Of a stretch of 64,000 nucleotides of DNA, positions 8,492 to 52,974 are shown piece by piece. The notes under the pieces were generated by a model. It saw nothing but the letters and a program-made list of their open reading frames with translations, searched no databases and was not told the origin of the DNA. This DNA comes from Escherichia phage vB_EcoM_PTE-Eco09. How positions within the stretch are numbered: the stretch's first letter is position 1; each line of letters starts with the position of its first letter. The DNA lies in sequence record PQ306574.1. One strand, written 5' to 3'. Position numbers and translations under genes: made by a program.

Positions 8492-9706
8492 ATGTTAGTA
8501 CGTCAAGCGCATGAAATTGAATGGACTAAGGAGAAACATAATTGTAGAGCGAAAAGCCCAACAGATTTTTATGGTAAAATTTTAGAAATATGTAAAACAG
8601 AAAATTTAGTTTTTGTCGGCTTTGTTGGGGAATGGGAAGGAAACAAAACAAAAATAAAACTTATCTGCGAACATGGTCATGAATGGATATGTTCGATAGA
8701 TAAATTTGTAAGTAAAGGAACAAGATGTTCTCATAAACAATGTAAAGGTAAACGAATATCTAAAAAATTGTCTATATCCGAAACGGAATACAAAACGAGA
8801 ATTTTAGAAATATGTGAAACTGAAAATCTAATTTTCTTAGGTTTTGTTGGTGAATGGAAAGGGTGTGATACTAAAATTCGCATAAAATGCAAATACGGTC
8901 ATGAATGGGATGTATCTATATATAGCTTCACAAAAATGAATACCAGATGCCCTACATGCGCAGGACAGAACAGGACAAAAGACGAATACAAAACGAGAAT
9001 TTTAGAAATATGTGAAACTGAAAATATAATTTTCTTAGGTTTTGTTGGTGAATGGAAAGGATGCCGCACAAAAATAAAACTTAGCTGCAAACACGGTCAT
9101 GAATGGATATCTTCCATATTATGTTTTGTGTATCAAAATACTCGCTGTCCTGTATGTGTTGGTAGATTGTCTATCGACGATAGAATGATACAGATTAATC
9201 AAGTTTGCAATTCTTTAGGTTATGTAATAATTAAGATCCACGAAGAATGGAAAAACACAGAAACTAAAATTGATGTTAAATGTTTATGTGATTATATATG
9301 GACAACAACAATACATAGAGTCATACATGGGACTACAGGTTGCAGAAAGTGTGCTACACATGGATACAATACAAAAAAATCGGGGACTCTTTATATACAG
9401 AAATTAACCAACGATGATTCCTTTGTTGGTGTGAAATTTGGAATAACAAACAGAGACACGAATGAACGAATGAAAAACCAATCATCAAAGTCTAAATTCG
9501 ACCATGAGATCTTTTATGAATTGACTTTACAAGACGGTCAAAAGATCTTAGAATTAGAGAACAAGATCAAGAAAGCGATGAAAGGTAAAACTTCCTATAT
9601 CTCAAAAGAAGATATGCCGGATGGCTGGACCGAAACAGTAGCGCCGTCTGAATTGAGCACTATCATGTATATCGTAAAAACTTTTGAAAAAGAGTTGACA
9701 GCGTAA
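8492..9706 (+). CDS. protein with three tandem Cys/His zinc-ribbon-like repeats and C-terminal T5orf172/GIY-YIG-superfamily-like domain
   Basis: Repeated block YKTRILEICETENxIFLGFVGEWKGCxTKIxxxCKxGHEW...TRCPxC three times; C-terminus LYIQKL...FVGVKFGITNRDTNERMK resembles T5orf172; occupies the segG position between 32 and frd. Confidence 0.5.
   Translation: MLVRQAHEIEWTKEKHNCRAKSPTDFYGKILEICKTENLVFVGFVGEWEGNKTKIKLICEHGHEWICSIDKFVSKGTRCSHKQCKGKRISKKLSISETEYKTRILEICETENLIFLGFVGEWKGCDTKIRIKCKYGHEWDVSIYSFTKMNTRCPTCAGQNRTKDEYKTRILEICETENIIFLGFVGEWKGCRTKIKLSCKHGHEWISSILCFVYQNTRCPVCVGRLSIDDRMIQINQVCNSLGYVIIKIHEEWKNTETKIDVKCLCDYIWTTTIHRVIHGTTGCRKCATHGYNTKKSGTLYIQKLTNDDSFVGVKFGITNRDTNERMKNQSSKSKFDHEIFYELTLQDGQKILELENKIKKAMKGKTSYISKEDMPDGWTETVAPSELSTIMYIVKTFEKELTA
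8578..9150 (+). repeat. intragenic tandem repeats (about 200-225 bp units, 3 copies)
   Basis: Near-identical stretches such as ACGAGAATTTTAGAAATATGTGAAACTGAAAAT...TTTCTTAGGTTTTGTTGGTGAATGGAAAGG at about 8801 and 8999, and a diverged copy at about 8578. Confidence 0.7.
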
Positions 9707-11414: not shown

Positions 11415-12606
11415 TGTTCTCGATAATGGCTGGCCTCGTGAAGATCGAACGGGGGTAGGTACGCTCTCTAAATTCGGCGCAGAGATGCGAATTGACTTAA
11501 GCAAGGGTTTCCCATTACTGACCACTAAAAAGATGGCTACAGCCTCTGTAATTGGCGAATTGCTATGGTTTATGGAGGGATCACTTGACCGCCGTCGCTT
11601 ACAGGAAATTACACGCGGTAAGTTTGACGAAGAAGCCTTCGACATTTGGCGCGGCAACTGTCTTGATATGAAAGAAAAGAATCCTTTGCGATTCAATGGT
11701 TATAATGTCGGCAATATGTATGGTATGGCGTGGCGACGCAAACCGATTCATCCACACGGTGAAATCAAAATTAAGCGCGTTAAGAGCAAATATACACATA
11801 CATTTAAGCACCCGTGGGTAGAAGACTTTACGCCAACCAATGAAACAGAAGACCGTTTATGTGCTATCTGGCGTGGTATGCGTTATGAAGAGTTTGATTA
11901 TATTCTGGTAGCAGACCACTGGAAGACTCAATCTAATTTTGTTAATGATGCATATTGCTTGTGGGGATTCCAGGAATGGGTAGATGATGGTTATTTCGGT
12001 TATCTGCTTGATAGTGATTATCTGGGTGGGGATATTATAGCACCGGATACCACGATGTTTGTTAGTATGGACGTAGACACATCAAGCACTAAAGACGATG
12101 AAGAATATGTCTATCGCCCGAAGATTTGGGAAGACCAGTTACAAAACGTGATCGAACAAATTAAAAACAATCCAACGGATCGCCGGATCATTATTGACTC
12201 ATGGAACGTACAAGGAACACATAATGCTGTATTAGGTGTATGTCATCCTTTCGTGCAATTCTACGTCAATGAAGGTAAACTGTCTTGTATGTGGTTTCAG
12301 CGAAGCGTAGACAGCTTTTTAGGCTTGCCCTTTAACGTCGCCAGCTATGCGCTGTTAACTCACATCATAGCGAAAATGTGTGATCTTGAGGTAGGAGAAC
12401 TGATTTTCTCTGGTGGAGATACTCACATTTACAAAAACCATTTTGATCAAGTCATGGAACAGTTAAGCCGTGTTCCGTTTGATAAACCAACAATTGAGTT
12501 GCCGGAATTTAAATCTTTAGATGAGGTATTGACAAAGACTCCGAAAGACTTTAAAATTCACAACTATCAAAGCCATCCAGCGATCACCGCTCAAATGGCA
12601 GTATAA
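11386..12606 (+). CDS. td: thymidylate synthase with large in-frame insertion
   Basis: Canonical ThyA blocks (DRTGVGT, FPLLTTKK, ELLWF, DRRIIIDSWN, CHPFVQFYV, LSCMWFQRSVD, FLGLPFNVASYALL, GDTHIYKNH) but 406 aa versus about 264-286 aa for typical enzymes. Confidence 0.9.
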   Translation: MKEYLKLLRDVLDNGWPREDRTGVGTLSKFGAEMRIDLSKGFPLLTTKKMATASVIGELLWFMEGSLDRRRLQEITRGKFDEEAFDIWRGNCLDMKEKNPLRFNGYNVGNMYGMAWRRKPIHPHGEIKIKRVKSKYTHTFKHPWVEDFTPTNETEDRLCAIWRGMRYEEFDYILVADHWKTQSNFVNDAYCLWGFQEWVDDGYFGYLLDSDYLGGDIIAPDTTMFVSMDVDTSSTKDDEEYVYRPKIWEDQLQNVIEQIKNNPTDRRIIIDSWNVQGTHNAVLGVCHPFVQFYVNEGKLSCMWFQRSVDSFLGLPFNVASYALLTHIIAKMCDLEVGELIFSGGDTHIYKNHFDQVMEQLSRVPFDKPTIELPEFKSLDEVLTKTPKDFKIHNYQSHPAITAQMAV

Positions 12607-15563: not shown

Positions 15564-16211
15564 ATGAACTTACAAAAACTACATGACGCAATCATAGAAA
15601 AAGCAAAGACGAGAGGAACCGTTGAAGGGTATAAGGAAACACATCATATTTTACCGCGATCTATGGGTGGCGGTGATGAAGTTGATAACCTGATTGAGTT
15701 GACAGCAAAAGAACATTTCGTGATTCATCATCTGCTAGCAAAAATTCATGGTGGACCTATGGCACAAGCATTTGGTATGATGTGTTTAGCAAAAAATGCG
15801 AAGACCAATAAAAGAGATTATATTGTTTCGTCTAGGGTATATGAACAAGCTAGGGTACTTATCTCTGAACAAAGAAAGGGCAAACCTATGAAAGAAGAAA
15901 CGCGAAGAAAGATTAGCGAATCTTCGAAAGGTGTGTTGAAATCAGAAGAGACAAAAGCTAAAATGCGTAAGCCAAAAACAAAGGAGCACGCGTTAAACAT
16001 TTCAAAAGCTAGAATGGGCAGTAAAAATCCTATGTTTGGGAAACCATCGCCAACTAAAGGAATACCACATAGTGAGGAAATGAGAAAGCTGATTGCACAA
16101 AGGACAAAGGAAGCAACAATGGCAGATCCTTGTCCGCATTGCGGTAAAATTACCAATAAAGGCAATTCTCTACGATGGCACTTTGATAACTGTAAAATGA
16201 GGAATATGTGA
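15564..16211 (+). CDS. mobE: HNH homing endonuclease with NUMOD3-like repeats (mobE-like position)
   Basis: HNH motif (THHILPRSMGGGDEVDNLIELTAKEHFVIHH) and repeated K/R-rich NUMOD-like motifs; located between nrdA and nrdB as T4 mobE. Confidence 0.7.
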   Translation: MNLQKLHDAIIEKAKTRGTVEGYKETHHILPRSMGGGDEVDNLIELTAKEHFVIHHLLAKIHGGPMAQAFGMMCLAKNAKTNKRDYIVSSRVYEQARVLISEQRKGKPMKEETRRKISESSKGVLKSEETKAKMRKPKTKEHALNISKARMGSKNPMFGKPSPTKGIPHSEEMRKLIAQRTKEATMADPCPHCGKITNKGNSLRWHFDNCKMRNM

Positions 16212-19150: not shown

Positions 19151-19176
19151 GGGCGGGAGAAATCCCGCCTTTGTTG
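19151..19176 (+). terminator. intrinsic terminator
   Basis: GGCGGGA-GAAA-TCCCGCC hairpin followed by TTTGTTG. Confidence 0.65.
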
Positions 19177-19194
19177 TGACGTGAGGAAAGGATA

Positions 19195-19656
19195 ATGATT
19201 AATGAGCTAATAGAAAACTATGGATTCGTTAAATATTCATGTTTAGAGTGTAAAGATGGTGACGTGATTCTACCGCCTCAGAAGAACCGTTTAAATGTTC
19301 TTTACGCTATTTCGGTTGATGATGAACTGGTATACATTGGTCAGACTGTCAATCTCAGAAAGCGGATCAATTATTAACGGACTAGCATTAACAGACAAAC
19401 ACCAACAGCGGATACTCGCAAGAGTAAGAATATTCATAAGGCGCTAGAGGAAGGTAAGACAGTAACATTCTATTACCGCCAGTGCTTTGAGTTATATATT
19501 GAGAATCCAACGGGTAAAGATATTATAAGCACTGCCGATATCGAAGAACCTGTTTTGATCACCAAATTTAAACCAGAATGGAACACAAATTATGTCAACA
19601 AAAGAAAACAACAAAAAAGTTTTAGCATTGTTCAAAAATCTGATGGCACTATGTGA
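19195..19656 (+). pseudogene. GIY-YIG endonuclease-like ORF interrupted by an in-frame TAA
   Basis: First 60 codons contain LYAIS...LVYIGQT...LRKRINY; TAA at 19375-19377; same frame stays open another 92 codons containing ...EEPVLITKFKPEWN (GIY-YIG C-terminal Glu/Asn region). Confidence 0.45.
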
Positions 19657-20761
19657 CGGATCTGATACGTTCTATTACAAAGATGAAATTACGGCGATGC
19701 AAACCCGTATGCGCATTTTTAGCTATCTGTACTTGAGCAAACCTGAAATGTGGAATAAACCAGATGCGTTAGAGTGTCGCGGGATCATGTTTGAAATTGA
19801 CGATAAAGGTCGTCCGGTCCGCATCGCATCTCGTCCTATGGAGAAGTTTTTTAATTTGGGTGAGAATGATCGCGCTCGCTTTAAGCCGGAAGATGTGGAA
19901 ATGGTCATGGACAAAATGGACGGTAGTCTAGTAAGCACATACATTGATAACGGCTATGTTCAGTTGAAGTCTAAAGCGGCCTTGTACTCAAGCCAGGCAG
20001 AGAGAGCAAACGGTCTTCTGTATTCAGAGAAGTATGCGGATCTACGCGCTAAGATTGCTGATATTGGGTCTGATTATACTTTCAACTTTGAATATACAGC
20101 GCCCAGCAACCGAATTGTTGTAGAATATTCTGAACCGTCGCTAACACTTCTGAATGTACGCCATAACGTCACAGGAGAGTACGTACCGCATCAAATGCTA
20201 TTTTCTGACGCAATCCTACGTCCTCATCTGGTAAATGCGTTACAGGTTGATTCAGCGCGTTTTAGCAATATTCTTGATGAAGTTCGGACCGCAGAAGGTA
20301 TCGAAGGAATTGTTGCACGCACTAAAGACGGTCAAATGTTCAAAGTGAAGAGTGAATGGTATATTGGTGTGCATAACATTAAAAACACATCGATGTTTCC
20401 TAATAACCTGATCTACTATGTCGTAGAAAGCGAAACCGATGATTTGCGTGCTGCATATGAAGGCGAACCGGAAGCACTGGAACGAATCGAGCTATTCGAG
20501 GAAGCATTCAGGTCTATTCTTCGCAATGCCTTCACGACAGCAACAGAATTTTATAACGCACACGCGGGAGAAGACAGAAAGACATATGCATCAAATGCGA
20601 CTATCGAATCACGTAAACATGGTGATGCACAAGCATATATTTTCATGTGTCTGATGATTGCATTTGATGGTCTTGATTATGACCGTATTCTGGATTCAAT
20701 GAAAACTTACTATCTACGGAATTATAAGAAACTTATTCCGGCTGATAAGATTGATTGGTAA
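19592..20761 (+). CDS. rnlA: RNA ligase 1
   Basis: Strong match to recalled T4 Rnl1/gp63 (PDALECRGIMFE, PVRIASRPMEKFFNL, DGSLVSTY, NFE(F/Y), NRIV, LLNVR.N.TGEY, LRP.LV, NIEG.VA, DGS/Q.FK.KS.WY, DRKTYA, FLKNYKK.IP). Confidence 0.9.
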   Translation: MSTKENNKKVLALFKNLMALCDGSDTFYYKDEITAMQTRMRIFSYLYLSKPEMWNKPDALECRGIMFEIDDKGRPVRIASRPMEKFFNLGENDRARFKPEDVEMVMDKMDGSLVSTYIDNGYVQLKSKAALYSSQAERANGLLYSEKYADLRAKIADIGSDYTFNFEYTAPSNRIVVEYSEPSLTLLNVRHNVTGEYVPHQMLFSDAILRPHLVNALQVDSARFSNILDEVRTAEGIEGIVARTKDGQMFKVKSEWYIGVHNIKNTSMFPNNLIYYVVESETDDLRAAYEGEPEALERIELFEEAFRSILRNAFTTATEFYNAHAGEDRKTYASNATIESRKHGDAQAYIFMCLMIAFDGLDYDRILDSMKTYYLRNYKKLIPADKIDW

Positions 20762-20767
20762 TAATAA

Positions 20768-20791
20768 GCGGGGCTAGTTCCCCGCCTTTTG
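20768..20791 (+). terminator. intrinsic terminator
   Basis: GCGGGG-CTAGTT-CCCCGC hairpin followed by CTTTTG. Confidence 0.6.
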
Positions 20792-20805
20792 TCGTTGGGG
20801 GTAAT

Positions 20806-21129
20806 ATGTCAAAGCTGATATACATTGTTATCATCTCTGTGTTGCTAGGGGTAGGTGGTAATATGTGGTGGGAAAATAAAAAGGAGGTAGATCGACTGAA
20901 TCAGGAATTTACAGAGTATAAGAAAAAGACAGATGAAAAGATGAAGGTCGTAGACTCACTACAAAAGGAGATGTACGGAATAAGAACTAAGTTTGCAGAA
21001 GAACAAAACAAAGCAATGAAAGACGCTACACGAGGCTATGTAGTAGCACAAAAACCAAAGTTGGTAGAGAAACAGCTTAATGATTCATTTAAGGAGTTTA
21101 CCGAAGAATTAAAGGAGGCTACTAAATGA
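20806..21129 (+). CDS. hypothetical membrane/coiled-coil protein
   Basis: N-terminal hydrophobic segment (LIYIVIISVLLGVGGNMWW) then charged coiled-coil-like region. Confidence 0.4.
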   Translation: MSKLIYIVIISVLLGVGGNMWWENKKEVDRLNQEFTEYKKKTDEKMKVVDSLQKEMYGIRTKFAEEQNKAMKDATRGYVVAQKPKLVEKQLNDSFKEFTEELKEATK

Positions 21130-21578
21130 GCATAGAAATATTGCCTACACAAGAGCAGATAAGCAATTTTAATCTGGTTGATTATCTGTGGATAGGTGCA
21201 AGCATTATTATCCTGATGGTGTTTTCAATTTTCGTGATACACTGGATGTTTAAGAAAGCACATAAGAATTTTCAGACCTCCATAATCCATGTCTTCGCTT
21301 TGCCTATTGTATTTGCGCTTTCTTCGTGTACAATGGACCATTATTCACAGGAACCGAAAGTACATCCTCCACTACCAGCACCAATAGAAAAAGTTGACAT
21401 TGACCTGAAAGTGGATACAATAGACGGTAAACCTAGAGTTTCTATGTCGTGGGAGGACTCCCAAAAATTCAGAGTCTGGCTTGCGGATATTAAGAGATAT
21501 ACACTTGAAAGTAAGTTGATCATGTGTTATTATCGAAAAGAACTTAATGAGGAACGGTGCAAACCGAAGGAGAAATAA
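21126..21578 (+). CDS. hypothetical membrane protein
   Basis: 150-aa ORF with hydrophobic helices near N-terminus; start overlaps upstream stop. Confidence 0.4.
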   Translation: MSIEILPTQEQISNFNLVDYLWIGASIIILMVFSIFVIHWMFKKAHKNFQTSIIHVFALPIVFALSSCTMDHYSQEPKVHPPLPAPIEKVDIDLKVDTIDGKPRVSMSWEDSQKFRVWLADIKRYTLESKLIMCYYRKELNEERCKPKEK

Positions 21579-22680: not shown

Positions 22681-23187
22681 ATGTTGTCACAAACTTACAT
22701 GCAGATCGCCTATCTGATCGCAAAGAACTCTAAATGTGTTTCGTGGAAGGTAGGCGCACTGATCGAAAAAGACGGGCGAATCATTTCTACTGGATTTAAC
22801 GGAACTCCAGCAGGGCAAGTAAATTGTAGCTGTCATGCACATAAAAACGGTTGGCTGGATGATGACGGCAAAATGATCCCAGAAAAACGACCAGAGCATA
22901 GTGCATGGTCACAGAAAAACGAGATCCACGCTGAATTAAATGCTATTTTGTTTGCTGCCCGTAGCGGTGTATCGATTGAAGGCGCTAGTATGTGGTGTAC
23001 TGCTTCACCGTGTCCAGATTGCGCTAAAGCAATTGCAAACAGTGGAATTAAATATCTATACTATTGCGACACATATGATCGAAATGGTGGGCGTGATTGG
23101 GCTGATATTCTGAATAATGCAGATATTACAATCACGCGTATTCCAAAAGCATTATTGACTGATTTGAAGGGTATTGATAATGACTGA
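22681..23187 (+). CDS. cd: dCMP deaminase
   Basis: CCSWKVGA.IEK.GRIISTG(Y/F)NG.PAG, SEWS.KNEIHAELNAILFAAR.G.SIEGA.M, SPCPDCAKAIA.SGIK match recalled T4 Cd and cytidine/dCMP deaminase zinc motifs. Confidence 0.9.
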   Translation: MLSQTYMQIAYLIAKNSKCVSWKVGALIEKDGRIISTGFNGTPAGQVNCSCHAHKNGWLDDDGKMIPEKRPEHSAWSQKNEIHAELNAILFAARSGVSIEGASMWCTASPCPDCAKAIANSGIKYLYYCDTYDRNGGRDWADILNNADITITRIPKALLTDLKGIDND

Positions 23188-26058: not shown

Positions 26059-26527
26059 TAATGAAGGGGCGAAAGCCCCTAAACCTAAAAAATTGTCAAA
26101 GAAAGAGCAACGCCAGATCCTGAAAATGAAATATGGTGGACGTTGTGCCTATTGTGGCGAGGAACTAGGGGATCGCTGGCACGCGGACCACATCAAACCA
26201 GTATTGCGACGCTCAAAGGTAGTCTATGATGAAAATGGACGAATTGCCCGTAATGATGATGGATCATGGAAATATAAGGTTGTAGGAATGCATAAACCGG
26301 AGCATGATATACTTGATAACATGAATCCGGCGTGTGTGCAATGCAATCTTTATAAAAGCTGTATGGGCTTAGAATACTGGCGTAAGTGTATACGCGAGAA
26401 CTTCCAGAAGTACATTCAGCGCAATATGGGATTGCGAGCGGCTAAACGCTTTGGCTTGCTGTCAATCCACGACCAGCCAGTAGAATTTTATTTCGAAAAG
26501 TACGATCGCGAGCATCAAGAAAAATAA
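26051..26527 (+). CDS. HNH endonuclease
   Basis: Cys pairs and HNH core: CAYCG...WHADHIKP...N...CVQCN. Confidence 0.65.
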   Translation: MCDNEGAKAPKPKKLSKKEQRQILKMKYGGRCAYCGEELGDRWHADHIKPVLRRSKVVYDENGRIARNDDGSWKYKVVGMHKPEHDILDNMNPACVQCNLYKSCMGLEYWRKCIRENFQKYIQRNMGLRAAKRFGLLSIHDQPVEFYFEKYDREHQEK

Positions 26528-26539
26528 TTCAAAAAGTTG

Positions 26540-26568
26540 TTGACAGGGGATCGGTGATCCCCTATACT
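26540..26568 (+). promoter_or_regulatory. PeSL-type early promoter
   Basis: TTGACA, spacer GGGGATCGGTGATCCCC (perfect palindrome), TATACT, leader ACACACATCAAAACGAAACA, SD GGAGAATCAAAA. Confidence 0.6.
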
Positions 26569-26613
26569 ACACACATCAAAACGAAACACACTTTCTTAAA
26601 CGGAGAATCAAAA

Positions 26614-26925
26614 ATGAAATACATCGTAACGCTGCCAATGATTGACTTCGACGGAACCATGAACACCCAGAAGACCATGAGCGCGGAGAACCAACTGAAA
26701 AACGCTACCCTGATTCGTGAAGTTCGCAAGGCACTGGCAAAAGAATTTAACACCAAAATTCATTCTGTAACTGGCGAACGTTTCGCGGATCATCTTGATA
26801 TCAACATCAAACCAGTGCGCAACGGTGTTATCTCTGTAACAACCAGCCGCCCACATGCTGACGCTGATAATCTGACCGCTCGCGCAGAAGATGTAATTAT
26901 GACCGTTATCATGGAAAAACTTTAA
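26614..26925 (+). CDS. hypothetical protein
   Basis: 103-aa ORF after PeSL cassette. Confidence 0.45.
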   Translation: MKYIVTLPMIDFDGTMNTQKTMSAENQLKNATLIREVRKALAKEFNTKIHSVTGERFADHLDINIKPVRNGVISVTTSRPHADADNLTARAEDVIMTVIMEKL

Positions 26926-26933
26926 AAAAGTTG

Positions 26934-26962
26934 TTGACAGGGGATCACCGATCCCCTATACT
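26934..26962 (+). promoter_or_regulatory. PeSL-type early promoter
   Basis: TTGACA, spacer GGGGATCACCGATCCCC, TATACT. Confidence 0.6.
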
Positions 26963-37360: not shown

Positions 37361-38418
37361 TATAATTGACTCCCAAATACAGTACCACGGGAAAGAGTAA
37401 GAATCTCCCTGAACGATACTTCCAAAACAAAAGTGCTCGGTAAATTAGGAGATATTGCAAGCCCACCAAATTTACCATCTGGGGATTTATCAAGTCTTAC
37501 GTTAGAAATTTGCGCTGGTCCGAAAACATCACTTCTTCCCTCATATTCAGAACGTTTTCCAAAGTTTGATATCATCCATATAGTAGGATTCGATACAGTG
37601 GTTACGTTTGTCAAAAAGTCAGTTATTCCCTCAAATACAGTACCCGTTGTATCAGCACCTTCTGGAACCGTTTTAGAAAGAATTGTCTTTTTATACCATG
37701 CGTCAACTTCCGCTTTTAATTGTTTTGCGGTACTGGAAATACCACTAGACCCATAAGATAACTCTACAAACGTCTCATAGATAATCAGGATATTTCGTAG
37801 GTCTTCAATACTGCGTGGGGTTAAGTTCCAAACATAGTTTTTAGTTCTAGGATCTGCCCCAGCATACATGCTACGAGCGGTATTATAGATTTGCTCGTTT
37901 TTATCCGCAAGATAACCACCCGTCAAACTTTCCAACCCACCAAATACTGCGGTCGATGCCATAGTAGATAATGCGCCAGAAATAGTGCCACCGCCACGCG
38001 TAACGAGAGATTCACCAACATCATTAAACTTGTGACTTACCGCATCAACATCTGATTGACTACGAGGAAGTAGAATATTAGCAACGGCCTCACGTTCAAA
38101 TCCAACTCCCCTATTACTCGTATATTCTGCCTTACCACCATTAGAAATAGATAGACCAAACCCCTTGATCGTGTTTCCTTTATTTCTGAAATCTCGTAGA
38201 GAGTCGGTAACACGACTTTTATAATCATAGGCAGTAAACAACAAGCCGTTATTATAAAGGTCATTTATGTATATACCAGATGAATCATTGCCGCTAGCTC
38301 GTTCAGATGGAAATTGAGCGGTTAAAGTTGACTTGTCTTGTTTTTGAGTAAAACCAGCAGACGCTTTGACGCCTTTGTTAAAGGCGTCTTTAGCATCATC
38401 CAAAATTTGAATTTTCAT
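37360..38418 (-). CDS. 48: baseplate tail tube cap (gp48-like)
   Basis: 352 aa (T4 about 364); synteny. Confidence 0.6.
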   Translation of the reverse strand: MKIQILDDAKDAFNKGVKASAGFTQKQDKSTLTAQFPSERASGNDSSGIYINDLYNNGLLFTAYDYKSRVTDSLRDFRNKGNTIKGFGLSISNGGKAEYTSNRGVGFEREAVANILLPRSQSDVDAVSHKFNDVGESLVTRGGGTISGALSTMASTAVFGGLESLTGGYLADKNEQIYNTARSMYAGADPRTKNYVWNLTPRSIEDLRNILIIYETFVELSYGSSGISSTAKQLKAEVDAWYKKTILSKTVPEGADTTGTVFEGITDFLTNVTTVSNPTIWMISNFGKRSEYEGRSDVFGPAQISNVRLDKSPDGKFGGLAISPNLPSTFVLEVSFREILTLSRGTVFGSQL

Positions 38419-38419
38419 A

Positions 38420-40105
38420 TTAAACTATTCCTTTCTGTAATAGACCGGGAGAAGGTGTACTAGTTTGAGGTCTGGTTATCTGAACCGTTCTATTATTGTT
38501 ATAGATCTGCGTGTTTGCAACGTTGGCAGTATTAGTAACAGTATTATCGTTTCTAATATTTTGTAGCTGACCTTGTTCTATAGACTTAGCTTGTTTTGCT
38601 GTATCGGTTTCATCCGGTGGCGGTGGAGTAACAGCAGGTGCGTTCTTAGTAATACGAATCTTGTCGTATTGGTCAAGAAGTTCTTTAATTTTCTGTCTGT
38701 CTGTAGAAAGAAGGTCTGGATTGTCCAACACTTTACGCTGTTCATTAACATCATTATCAAGCGCAGCTAATTTATCTGGAAGAGTACCCGGTTTTACGGT
38801 CTTTAACATAGAGATATTTCGAACCATGTCACCCTCAACGTCAATAGTGATATTGCTACTCTTTCTATAGGCATCATCACTAACAGATTTTAGCTCTTTC
38901 ATCCTAGTAACTTCATATTTTTCCTGTTCAGTTAAAATAGGCTCTACTTGCATACTTGCCATACTGCTATATTGCTGATTAGCAAGTTTTGCTTGAGTCT
39001 GCATACCTTTCTGAATTTCTTCTTCTTTCTTCATACGGGCGTACAACTCTTTTTCTCGTTCATCCATTTTAACACCGCTACGCGCTTGTGCTTGTTTTAA
39101 AGCACCATATTCCAGAGTATCAGCCAACGAACCCATACCAGGAATAGAACGAAGTACCGACGCAAGACCTTTAGTTATTATTCTATCAAGCTGAAAAAAC
39201 GCATCAACCAACACATCAGCCAAACCACTAACAAGCTCGGTTACAAGTTCACCATATTCTTTATTTTCCCAATAGTTTTGTATACTTTCAACGGAAGTTA
39301 AAACTTTATCTAATGTAGAACCCCAATTTCCTGCCTTCCTCATAAACTCGCCAAAGTTCTCGTCAAACTGCTTACTCCAGTATCTAAAATGAATCATTAG
39401 AGTATCAACAGCAACAACGATCCCCAGAAGAATAGCTCCCCATTTGACAACCTCAAACATTGCGGTCACCGTCATTTTAAACAGCATAGAGAATATCTTG
39501 TTGGATACACCAACAGTCTCTTTAAATCCACCGCGAACCGCTTTGAGTAGCAGTTGCATATTATTGTCACGGTCGCTATTCTTATCTTTCTTTTTCTTTT
39601 TATTATCGTCTTTAGGCTTCTTAGGTAACGTAGGGTAGTTATCGTTATTTTGTTGTTCCGGTACACTCGGCAAAACTGGTTGCGGTGATGGCATAGTTTG
39701 TTCCGGCTGTTTATCATCCTTGATGGCATTTTCGATTGCATCGAGACCACTGGTGATCTTAGAAACGACGCTGAATCGACGTTCCATCATGACACCAAAA
39801 CCGCGTAATTTCTCATTCATTTGAGAAGAAAAGCTATTCAACTTCTGCAATTCTTCATAGGTTTTTTGAGTATTGCCAGCGGTAGATTGTGTGTTTTCTG
39901 CCGTTAATTCGTTGGCTGCGGTGTTATCCTCCACCGCTCCAATAACTTCATTAGATTTTTGTTCTACTGTCTCCGCCACCAATTCACTTGCAGCTTGAAG
40001 ATTATCAATAGAATCAAGTTTATCTAATTTGTTAAGTTTATCAATCGGGTTTTCTTCCGCTTCCTTGCGCATCCCGCGAAATGATGTTAATGCGTCATTA
40101 TTCAT
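38420..40105 (-). CDS. 29: baseplate hub / tail length determinator (gp29-like)
   Basis: 561 aa (T4 about 590), coiled-coil-rich with hydrophobic central segment; synteny. Confidence 0.6.
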   Translation of the reverse strand: MNNDALTSFRGMRKEAEENPIDKLNKLDKLDSIDNLQAASELVAETVEQKSNEVIGAVEDNTAANELTAENTQSTAGNTQKTYEELQKLNSFSSQMNEKLRGFGVMMERRFSVVSKITSGLDAIENAIKDDKQPEQTMPSPQPVLPSVPEQQNNDNYPTLPKKPKDDNKKKKKDKNSDRDNNMQLLLKAVRGGFKETVGVSNKIFSMLFKMTVTAMFEVVKWGAILLGIVVAVDTLMIHFRYWSKQFDENFGEFMRKAGNWGSTLDKVLTSVESIQNYWENKEYGELVTELVSGLADVLVDAFFQLDRIITKGLASVLRSIPGMGSLADTLEYGALKQAQARSGVKMDEREKELYARMKKEEEIQKGMQTQAKLANQQYSSMASMQVEPILTEQEKYEVTRMKELKSVSDDAYRKSSNITIDVEGDMVRNISMLKTVKPGTLPDKLAALDNDVNEQRKVLDNPDLLSTDRQKIKELLDQYDKIRITKNAPAVTPPPPDETDTAKQAKSIEQGQLQNIRNDNTVTNTANVANTQIYNNNRTVQITRPQTSTPSPGLLQKGIV

Positions 40106-46064: not shown

Positions 46065-46796
46065 TCACCTTTTAACAAGTTTTCCAAGAACAAAACCATC
46101 AGGAGGGGTGTCACCGCGTTTCACGACCTTATTAACTACCCCGTTGTTATACCACTTACTACCAGTATGAAAATCGTTAAGCCTTGCTACACGCTCGGCG
46201 AGAGCACCGGACTCACGATCCTTTTGGACTTGTCTTAGACACATTTCCCTGTTAGCGGCTTTGCGTTCCTCCGTCCATTCTATATGGTCCCACCCAACAT
46301 GTAAATTACCCTTGACGAATCCGTCAGGTGGAGTTTCTCCATCTCGAACTCGTATAGATTTAACACCGTCGTTGTACCATGTGCTGCCGGAAACACTATC
46401 TCGCATACCTACTATTGCTTTTTTTAGTTTTCCAGTTTTCATATCACGTTCTACGCGCTCTTTGGCAGAAGAAGACATTTTAGCGCGTACAGAGTCTGAG
46501 TATACCTGGTCTCCGTCATAACGACCGCCAGTAACTACATTATAATAATTGGGATCTTTTACAATGTCAACAGTGACAAGTTCTTTTTCGTATAGGTAAG
46601 CATCTTGCTCGGTATCAAACATTTTTAATATGCGCTTCTCGAAGTTCTCAATGCCATATTTTTCAAATGCAGCACGAAGAAGGTCACCAGACCCCATATA
46701 TCCATCATGCATATTGTTAGTAGAATGTTTACCTATATACAATTTGCCGTTTACAAGATTCTTTATCTCATAAACATAATGAAATCTTTTAGCCAT
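46065..46796 (-). CDS. GIY-YIG homing endonuclease (Seg-like)
   Basis: N-terminal FHYVYEIKNLVNGKLYIGKHS GIY-YIG motif; C-terminal repeated DNA-binding modules (GSTWYNDGVKSIRVRDGETPPDGFVKG / GSKWYNNGVVNKVVKRGDTPPDGFVLG). Confidence 0.75.
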   Translation of the reverse strand: MAKRFHYVYEIKNLVNGKLYIGKHSTNNMHDGYMGSGDLLRAAFEKYGIENFEKRILKMFDTEQDAYLYEKELVTVDIVKDPNYYNVVTGGRYDGDQVYSDSVRAKMSSSAKERVERDMKTGKLKKAIVGMRDSVSGSTWYNDGVKSIRVRDGETPPDGFVKGNLHVGWDHIEWTEERKAANREMCLRQVQKDRESGALAERVARLNDFHTGSKWYNNGVVNKVVKRGDTPPDGFVLGKLVKR

Positions 46797-52717: not shown

Positions 52718-52974
52718 GCATTCCTCCTTATGGAGAATTTTGGGTTAGTTCAGGGAACAGCGTACCAAAACCAAAAATTACCGCTAGCGTCACGCTGGAA
52801 TGCCATAACAAGGTCCGTCATACACCAGATCTTGTATATCTATCAAATCTATCCGACCCAACATCAGCATGAACGCTCATTTCATTCATTGGTCCCTTTG
52901 CCATGCAGTTACTACGAAAATTGGTGGAATTGTTTGTTGTGTGTATCTATTTTCGCTCCCAATAGAATATAGGC

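Follow-up and report, generated by a model that had tools for sequence, protein, structure and literature searches.

A probable recent null allele of denA, the endonuclease II gene, in an RB49-like coliphage

Positions 19195-19656 (plus strand) of the window, the 64-kb stretch of the Escherichia phage vB_EcoM_PTE-Eco09 genome (PQ306574.1) analysed here, translate as a single 153-codon frame that is interrupted solely by a TAA at codon 61. Sixty sense codons are followed by the TAA (19375-19377), 92 further sense codons and a TGA (19654-19656). The truncated frame with its premature stop (19195-19377) carries VLY at codons 35-37, YIG at codons 47-49 and RKR at codons 55-57. The stranded 3' part, codons 62-153 plus the TGA (19378-19656), holds Lys76, Glu118 (GAA, 19546-19548) and Asn130, with EEPVLITKFKPEWN encoded by codons 117-130 in the same frame. 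This arrangement agrees with the earlier note on this DNA, which had described a GIY-YIG frame broken by a lone in-frame TAA that leaves the Glu/Asn region downstream and 92 codons open. The two halves jointly match phage T4 endonuclease II (EndoII) end to end, so chance is not at issue for the split frame. Sequence comparison identifies the interrupted gene as denA, orthologous to the gene for T4 EndoII, in an RB49-like coliphage of the genus Krischvirus (Straboviridae).

A terminator-like hairpin, eight pairs followed by TTTGTTG, lies between the upstream ORF and denA (19151-19170, plus strand), where relatives annotate the same terminator, and the denA Shine-Dalgarno sequence, GAGGAAAGG, is located 3' of the hairpin at about 19183-19191 on the same strand. 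At its other end denA runs into rnlA, the gene for RNA ligase 1 (19592-20761, plus strand; matches to PDB 2C5U, 9DO4 and 5TT6, E about 1e-90), which is intact and read in another frame. The overlap with the rnlA start that had been described earlier is thus present, measuring 65 nt if rnlA begins at ATG 19592 and 14 nt if it begins at ATG 19643. The first of these starts is annotated in RB49 and Phi1 and the second in kvi, G37-3, AV108 and KFS-EC; ATG 19592 is the likely start, since Met1 of T4 Rnl1 pairs with residue 10 of the ORF that opens there. GC-rich terminator-like hairpins with T tails (19151-19170 and 20768-20785) bracket the denA-rnlA pair, and a sigma-70-like match, TTGAGA-16-TATTAT, is found inside denA upstream of rnlA (19499-19526); all of these are consensus matches only.

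The assignment to denA draws on several lines of evidence. A 2.1-kb query around the site matched 58 phage genomes at 98-99.5% identity, every one of them RB49-like (Krischvirus, Straboviridae), and the gene sits at a fixed locus in all 58 Krischvirus records that cover at least 80% of the query. The coordinates of the frame equal exactly those of the annotated CDS (462 nt, denA / endonuclease II) in kvi, RB49 and G37-3. When Tyr61 was restored, a phmmer search against the PDB aligned residues 3-134 of the protein with residues 9-141 of 2WSH chain A (E=2.1e-38), a structure of the E118A mutant of T4 EndoII whose position 118 pairs with Glu118 of the window protein. The restored protein passed the Pfam cut-off for GIY-YIG (PF01541; 23.9 bits against a gathering score of 22.6) and stayed below that of PF19239. 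Gly49, Arg57, Lys76, Glu118 and Asn130, together with the GIY/YIG motifs, are all present under T4 numbering in the conceptual readthrough translation, and the DenA numbering coincides with that of T4 from residue 24 onward. Homologues were found by tblastn in 1150 phage records, and among the matches listed the annotation was endonuclease II or denA.

The gene neighbourhood agrees with this identification. In the window, nrdA is followed by a homing endonuclease gene, nrdB, a gene for a 3'-phosphatase, small ORFs, denA, rnlA, pseT.3, pseT.2, pseT and cd, and the order in T4 (NC_000866) is nrdA, mobE, nrdB, denA, rnlA, alc, pseT.3, pseT.2, pseT and, further on, cd, so that apart from the missing alc the window follows T4. 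The window protein and T4 EndoII (2WSH) thus share a fold family, the same numbered key residues and the same place between nrdB and rnlA, at about 50-55% identity between the T4-type and Krischvirus proteins. The Krischvirus version differs in a C-terminal tail of ~17 residues that overlaps rnlA, whereas denA and rnlA of T4 are about 50 nt apart without overlap. The genomic setting also differs from T4 in that the hmC pathway, denB, ndd and alc are all missing (PMC12115623, Table 4), so that the Krischvirus enzyme acts against a background of unmodified cytosine DNA. In the window, rnlA is directly followed by pseT.3 and pseT.2, which encode Rz-like spanins (20755-21578), and the absence of alc between them, unlike in T4, fits Krischviruses being without alc. 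A 150-aa ORF in the pseT.3/pseT.2 region contains LSSC, a lipobox-like motif.

A GIY-YIG motif alone would also suit a free-standing homing endonuclease of the Seg type in the course of decay, as T4-like phages carry many seg-type genes (PMC2993671) and SegA-G and I-TevI have the GIY-YIG catalytic motif in common with denA. The protein encoded here has 153 residues and one domain, and Pfam detects no C-terminal DNA-binding module, whereas proteins of the Seg/I-Tev type are about 200-250 aa long. Nor is the gene sporadic, as it occupies the same locus in 58/58 Krischvirus records, in synteny with denA of T4. The match to T4 EndoII at E=2e-38 and a pN/pS of 0.04, which reflects strong purifying selection and the upkeep of a cellular-type function as opposed to the decay of a selfish element, point the same way. 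We therefore assign the gene as the orthologue of T4 denA on the grounds of its single domain, its fixed locus and the lack of a DNA-binding module, and consider that a Seg-like origin, refuted by the 58/58 presence, the 2WSH match and the T4 synteny, can hardly apply. Of the two options in the earlier note, a decaying homing endonuclease or a gene requiring readthrough or suppression, the first comes nearer the truth in that the gene appears to be failing, but its homing part does not hold for a single-domain denA at a fixed locus.

The state of codon 61 before the stop arose is clear from the relatives. All nine that were aligned (kvi, RB49, G37-3, AV108, JSE, KFS-EC, Phi1, G2248 and one ECD7-like viral contig) have TAC (Tyr) at this codon and encode a full-length protein, which answers the earlier proposal to look for a sense codon there. 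The premature ochre codon (19375-19377) corresponds to a C>A transversion at 19377. Intact Krischvirus DenA (RB49 AAQ15449.1; kvi QHR71570.1) has identical coordinates and 98-100% protein identity, and one base, TAC versus TAA at codon 61, separates the intact gene from that in the window. With Tyr61 restored, the window protein and DenA of kvi are 100% identical, and this exact sequence is recorded on 17 contigs. The change from TAC to TAA is the only private change in the window denA, every other variable codon state being found in at least one other genome, and the part behind the stop has no private substitutions. Over ten sequences, pN/pS was 0.044 for the whole of denA and 0.018 for codons 62-138, low values that indicate that the relatives need full-length DenA. 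Given this strong purifying selection and the absence so far of any decay in the constrained part behind the stop, the lesion appears to be either very recent or an error. In JSE, denA (L009:260-691) has a 1-nt difference in an A-run near the 3' end and encodes a protein of 143 aa with a different tail, so that changes to the C-terminal extension past about residue 136 seem to be tolerated.

The favoured account is that a single recent C>A change turned TAC (Tyr61) into TAA. Translation would then end after 60 residues, in a product that keeps the Lys equivalent to T4 K12, the GIY/YIG hairpin (the GIY-like VLY and YIG with Gly49) and Arg57, and that has lost Lys76, which serves recognition and binding, the catalytic Glu118 and Asn130. 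In T4 EndoII, the E118A substitution abolishes catalysis (PMC2764454, also the source of the residue roles used here), and the 60-aa product should be inactive and unable to nick DNA. A restart product bearing the catalytic half can be ruled out, as no in-frame ATG, GTG or TTG lies between the stop and Glu118; the first such codon after the stop is the TTG at codon 121, beyond the catalytic residue. ARAGORN found no tRNA genes in the 64-kb window, and none are listed for RB49-type genomes (PMC2993671, Table 2). With Glu118 and Asn130 lost and neither a restart nor a suppressor route in the window, the phage is predicted to be DenA-null and the window to hold a null allele, that is, a pseudogene, of the DenA family, a reading to which we assign a probability of about 0.8. 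A conserved stand-alone gene for a protein of 60 residues, which the earlier note had named as an outcome that would count against a broken gene, is excluded, given that homologues measure 135-155 aa except for two frameshifted alleles and that the exact 60-aa product was found neither in the gene-position index nor in a 15-billion-protein collection.

The stop could be genuine and nevertheless bypassed, with full-length DenA made by UAA readthrough or with the help of a host suppressor tRNA; an ochre suppressor derived from tyrT would insert Tyr and give the exact wild-type protein. Some features of the locus suit this proposal: the 92 codons after the TAA are open and without further damage, the ancestral residue is the one that a tyrosine-inserting ochre suppressor would place, and the stop at codon 61 stands in the context UAA-C. 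In E. coli, termination at UAA-C is commonly regarded as weaker than at UAA-U or UAA-G. The undamaged downstream half is, however, equally expected from a very recent mutation. The stop is moreover not conserved, unlike in programmed readthrough genes; all relatives have a sense codon at this position, so nothing has evolved for recoding, and beyond the stop the sequence does not differ from that of the relatives with TAC, so there is no dedicated stimulatory element. The window encodes no suppressor tRNA, and the listed number of tRNA genes in RB49-type genomes is 0 (PMC2993671). A need for readthrough or suppression, as raised in the earlier note, thus finds no counterpart in the 9/9 sense codons and the absence of tRNA genes from the window, and we regard bypass of the stop as very improbable.

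If the stop exists only in the deposited sequence, through an error in base calling or consensus building, the phage would truly have TAC and an intact denA. This is the main rival to a real mutation, and a sequencing error was the other refuting outcome named in the earlier note. Only one base is changed, in the window alone and in none of the collections searched, the downstream half is as pristine as would be expected of an error in an intact gene, and denA is strongly conserved in all 58 relatives. A 33-mer containing the TAA had no match in IMG/VR or the JGI metagenomes, a search that had power, since the TAC version of the 33-mer matched an ECD7-like viral contig. No record identical at 100% over the 81-bp flank was present among 50,697 phage records, and none of 48 phage records contained an identical 81-mer. 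The absence of the TAA allele from other records and contigs fits a private recent mutation and an error alike.

Other properties of the window argue against an error. It has no ambiguous bases, and the TAA site lies outside any homopolymer. Systematic miscalling at a CCGG methylation motif was rejected, CCGG being replaced by ACGG at only 1 of 119 aligned sites; overall CCGG turnover relative to AV108 was 12/119, near the background rate. The 1192 substitutions relative to AV108 comprise 707 transitions and 485 transversions and resemble natural divergence. When 90 annotated AV108 proteins were searched against the window with tblastn and about 85 genes were compared, a single 45-aa hypothetical ORF was frameshifted and no other nonsense change or frameshift was seen in sizeable genes. 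A candidate second nonsense change, in the dCMP deaminase gene cd (22681-23187), proved to be merely a C-terminus that ends with GIDND, 3 codons before that of AV108 (171 aa), a trivial difference without disruption. Independent denA-null alleles in other strains, described below, further indicate that such variants are viable and do arise. Taken together, an error appears unlikely, and the allele is probably a real, ordinary and very recent loss of function of denA.

A protein search returned two short relatives, of 86 and 84 aa. Both are encoded by frameshifted denA genes on Logan contigs, one from ERR3588729 (L007:1501-1761) with a (TA)3 run expanded to (TA)7 (+8 nt), the other from SRR30645917 (L008:719-973) with (TA)3 expanded to (TA)4 (+2 nt). 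In RB49-type alleles the run reads GG-TATATA-TTGG across the YIG codons; at the equivalent position (19331-19336) the window reads TATACA, so the TA repeat is interrupted there. An origin of the two contigs from RB49 laboratory stock was rejected: their identity to RB49 is 98.9% and 99.2%, and as they also differ from each other they represent distinct wild strains. Viable denA-null Krischviruses thus seem to arise repeatedly, and such recurrent wild nulls raise the prior that the TAA in the window is real. They also hint that selection on denA is relaxed or conditional in Krischviruses.

A broader possibility is that denA is recurrently switched off in this genus, the ochre allele and the two TA-run frameshifts counting as three independent nulls. 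Under some conditions a phage with unmodified cytosine DNA and without denB, ndd and alc might find its own EndoII costly, and particular hosts, or propagation, could favour loss of denA, partly via a slippage-prone repeat. We consider recurrent switching-off doubtful; were it to hold, higher generalized transduction by therapy-candidate phages would be one implication. The observation itself, that denA appears to have been knocked out independently more than once in the genus, twice via a slippage-prone TA repeat, is the mildly new point of this analysis. Recurrent null alleles bear on how T4 relatives with cytosine DNA coexist with their own EndoII, the self-protection of such phages being an unresolved question (PMC8056088).

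The ochre allele as such is a known kind of feature, an ordinary loss-of-function allele. It resembles the T4 denA null mutants (e.g. nd28) in being a null allele within an otherwise intact phage genome, but those were made in the laboratory whereas the allele in the window would be a natural ochre mutation. In T4, EndoII is the first enzyme to cut the cytosine-containing DNA of the host, and so starts its breakdown and the scavenging of nucleotides (PMC2764454), and denA is classed as a quasi-core gene of auxiliary metabolism (PMC2993671). Krischviruses are without the hmC pathway, denB, ndd and alc and have kept denA (PMC12115623; PMC8056088), which is the only one that the genus retains among the four T4 genes for host-DNA degradation or shutoff that were scored, denA, denB, ndd and alc (PMC12115623).

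Extrapolating from T4 and from a review (PMC12115623), we expect that a denA-null isolate should be viable with less degradation of host DNA, leaving host and plasmid DNA more intact and fewer nucleotides scavenged. RB49 is a generalized transducer of plasmids (PMC12115623; PMC8056088), and in a Krischvirus that also lacks denB, ndd and alc the loss of DenA could make transduction more frequent. This may concern phage therapy, for which RB49-like phages are in use and under proposal, as inactivation of denA might make still more host and plasmid DNA available for packaging. In itself, a point-mutation knockout of a dispensable and well-characterised phage gene matters little. The appropriate annotation is that of a denA pseudogene (endonuclease II, Tyr61 to ochre), not of a 60-aa hypothetical protein or a homing endonuclease.

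The stop leaves a 214-nt untranslated stretch before rnlA. Rho-dependent polarity on rnlA is not predicted, as the stretch contains no C-rich, G-poor run, with C/G ratios of 0.63-1.15 in 78-nt windows across it. A polar effect through lost translational coupling is possible, given the weak Shine-Dalgarno match upstream of ATG 19592.

AV108 is the closest relative overall, with mosaic differences at about 26524-26961 and at 8492-9703 of the window. At 8492-9703, the ORF in the window shares only 47% identity with that of AV108, a sign that the gene may have been replaced. Four small AV108 ORFs (record positions 37899-38975) are missing from the window. The frameshifted 45-aa AV108 ORF (record positions 11700-11837), which lies between the genes for the major capsid and vertex proteins, is split over two frames in the window (52753-52889) and may not be a real gene. 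The counterparts of two annotated AV108 homing endonuclease genes are intact in the window (15564-16208 and 46068-46796); one of them has the place that mobE takes in T4, between nrdA and nrdB, and the other adjoins a DNA helicase (uvsW-like) gene.
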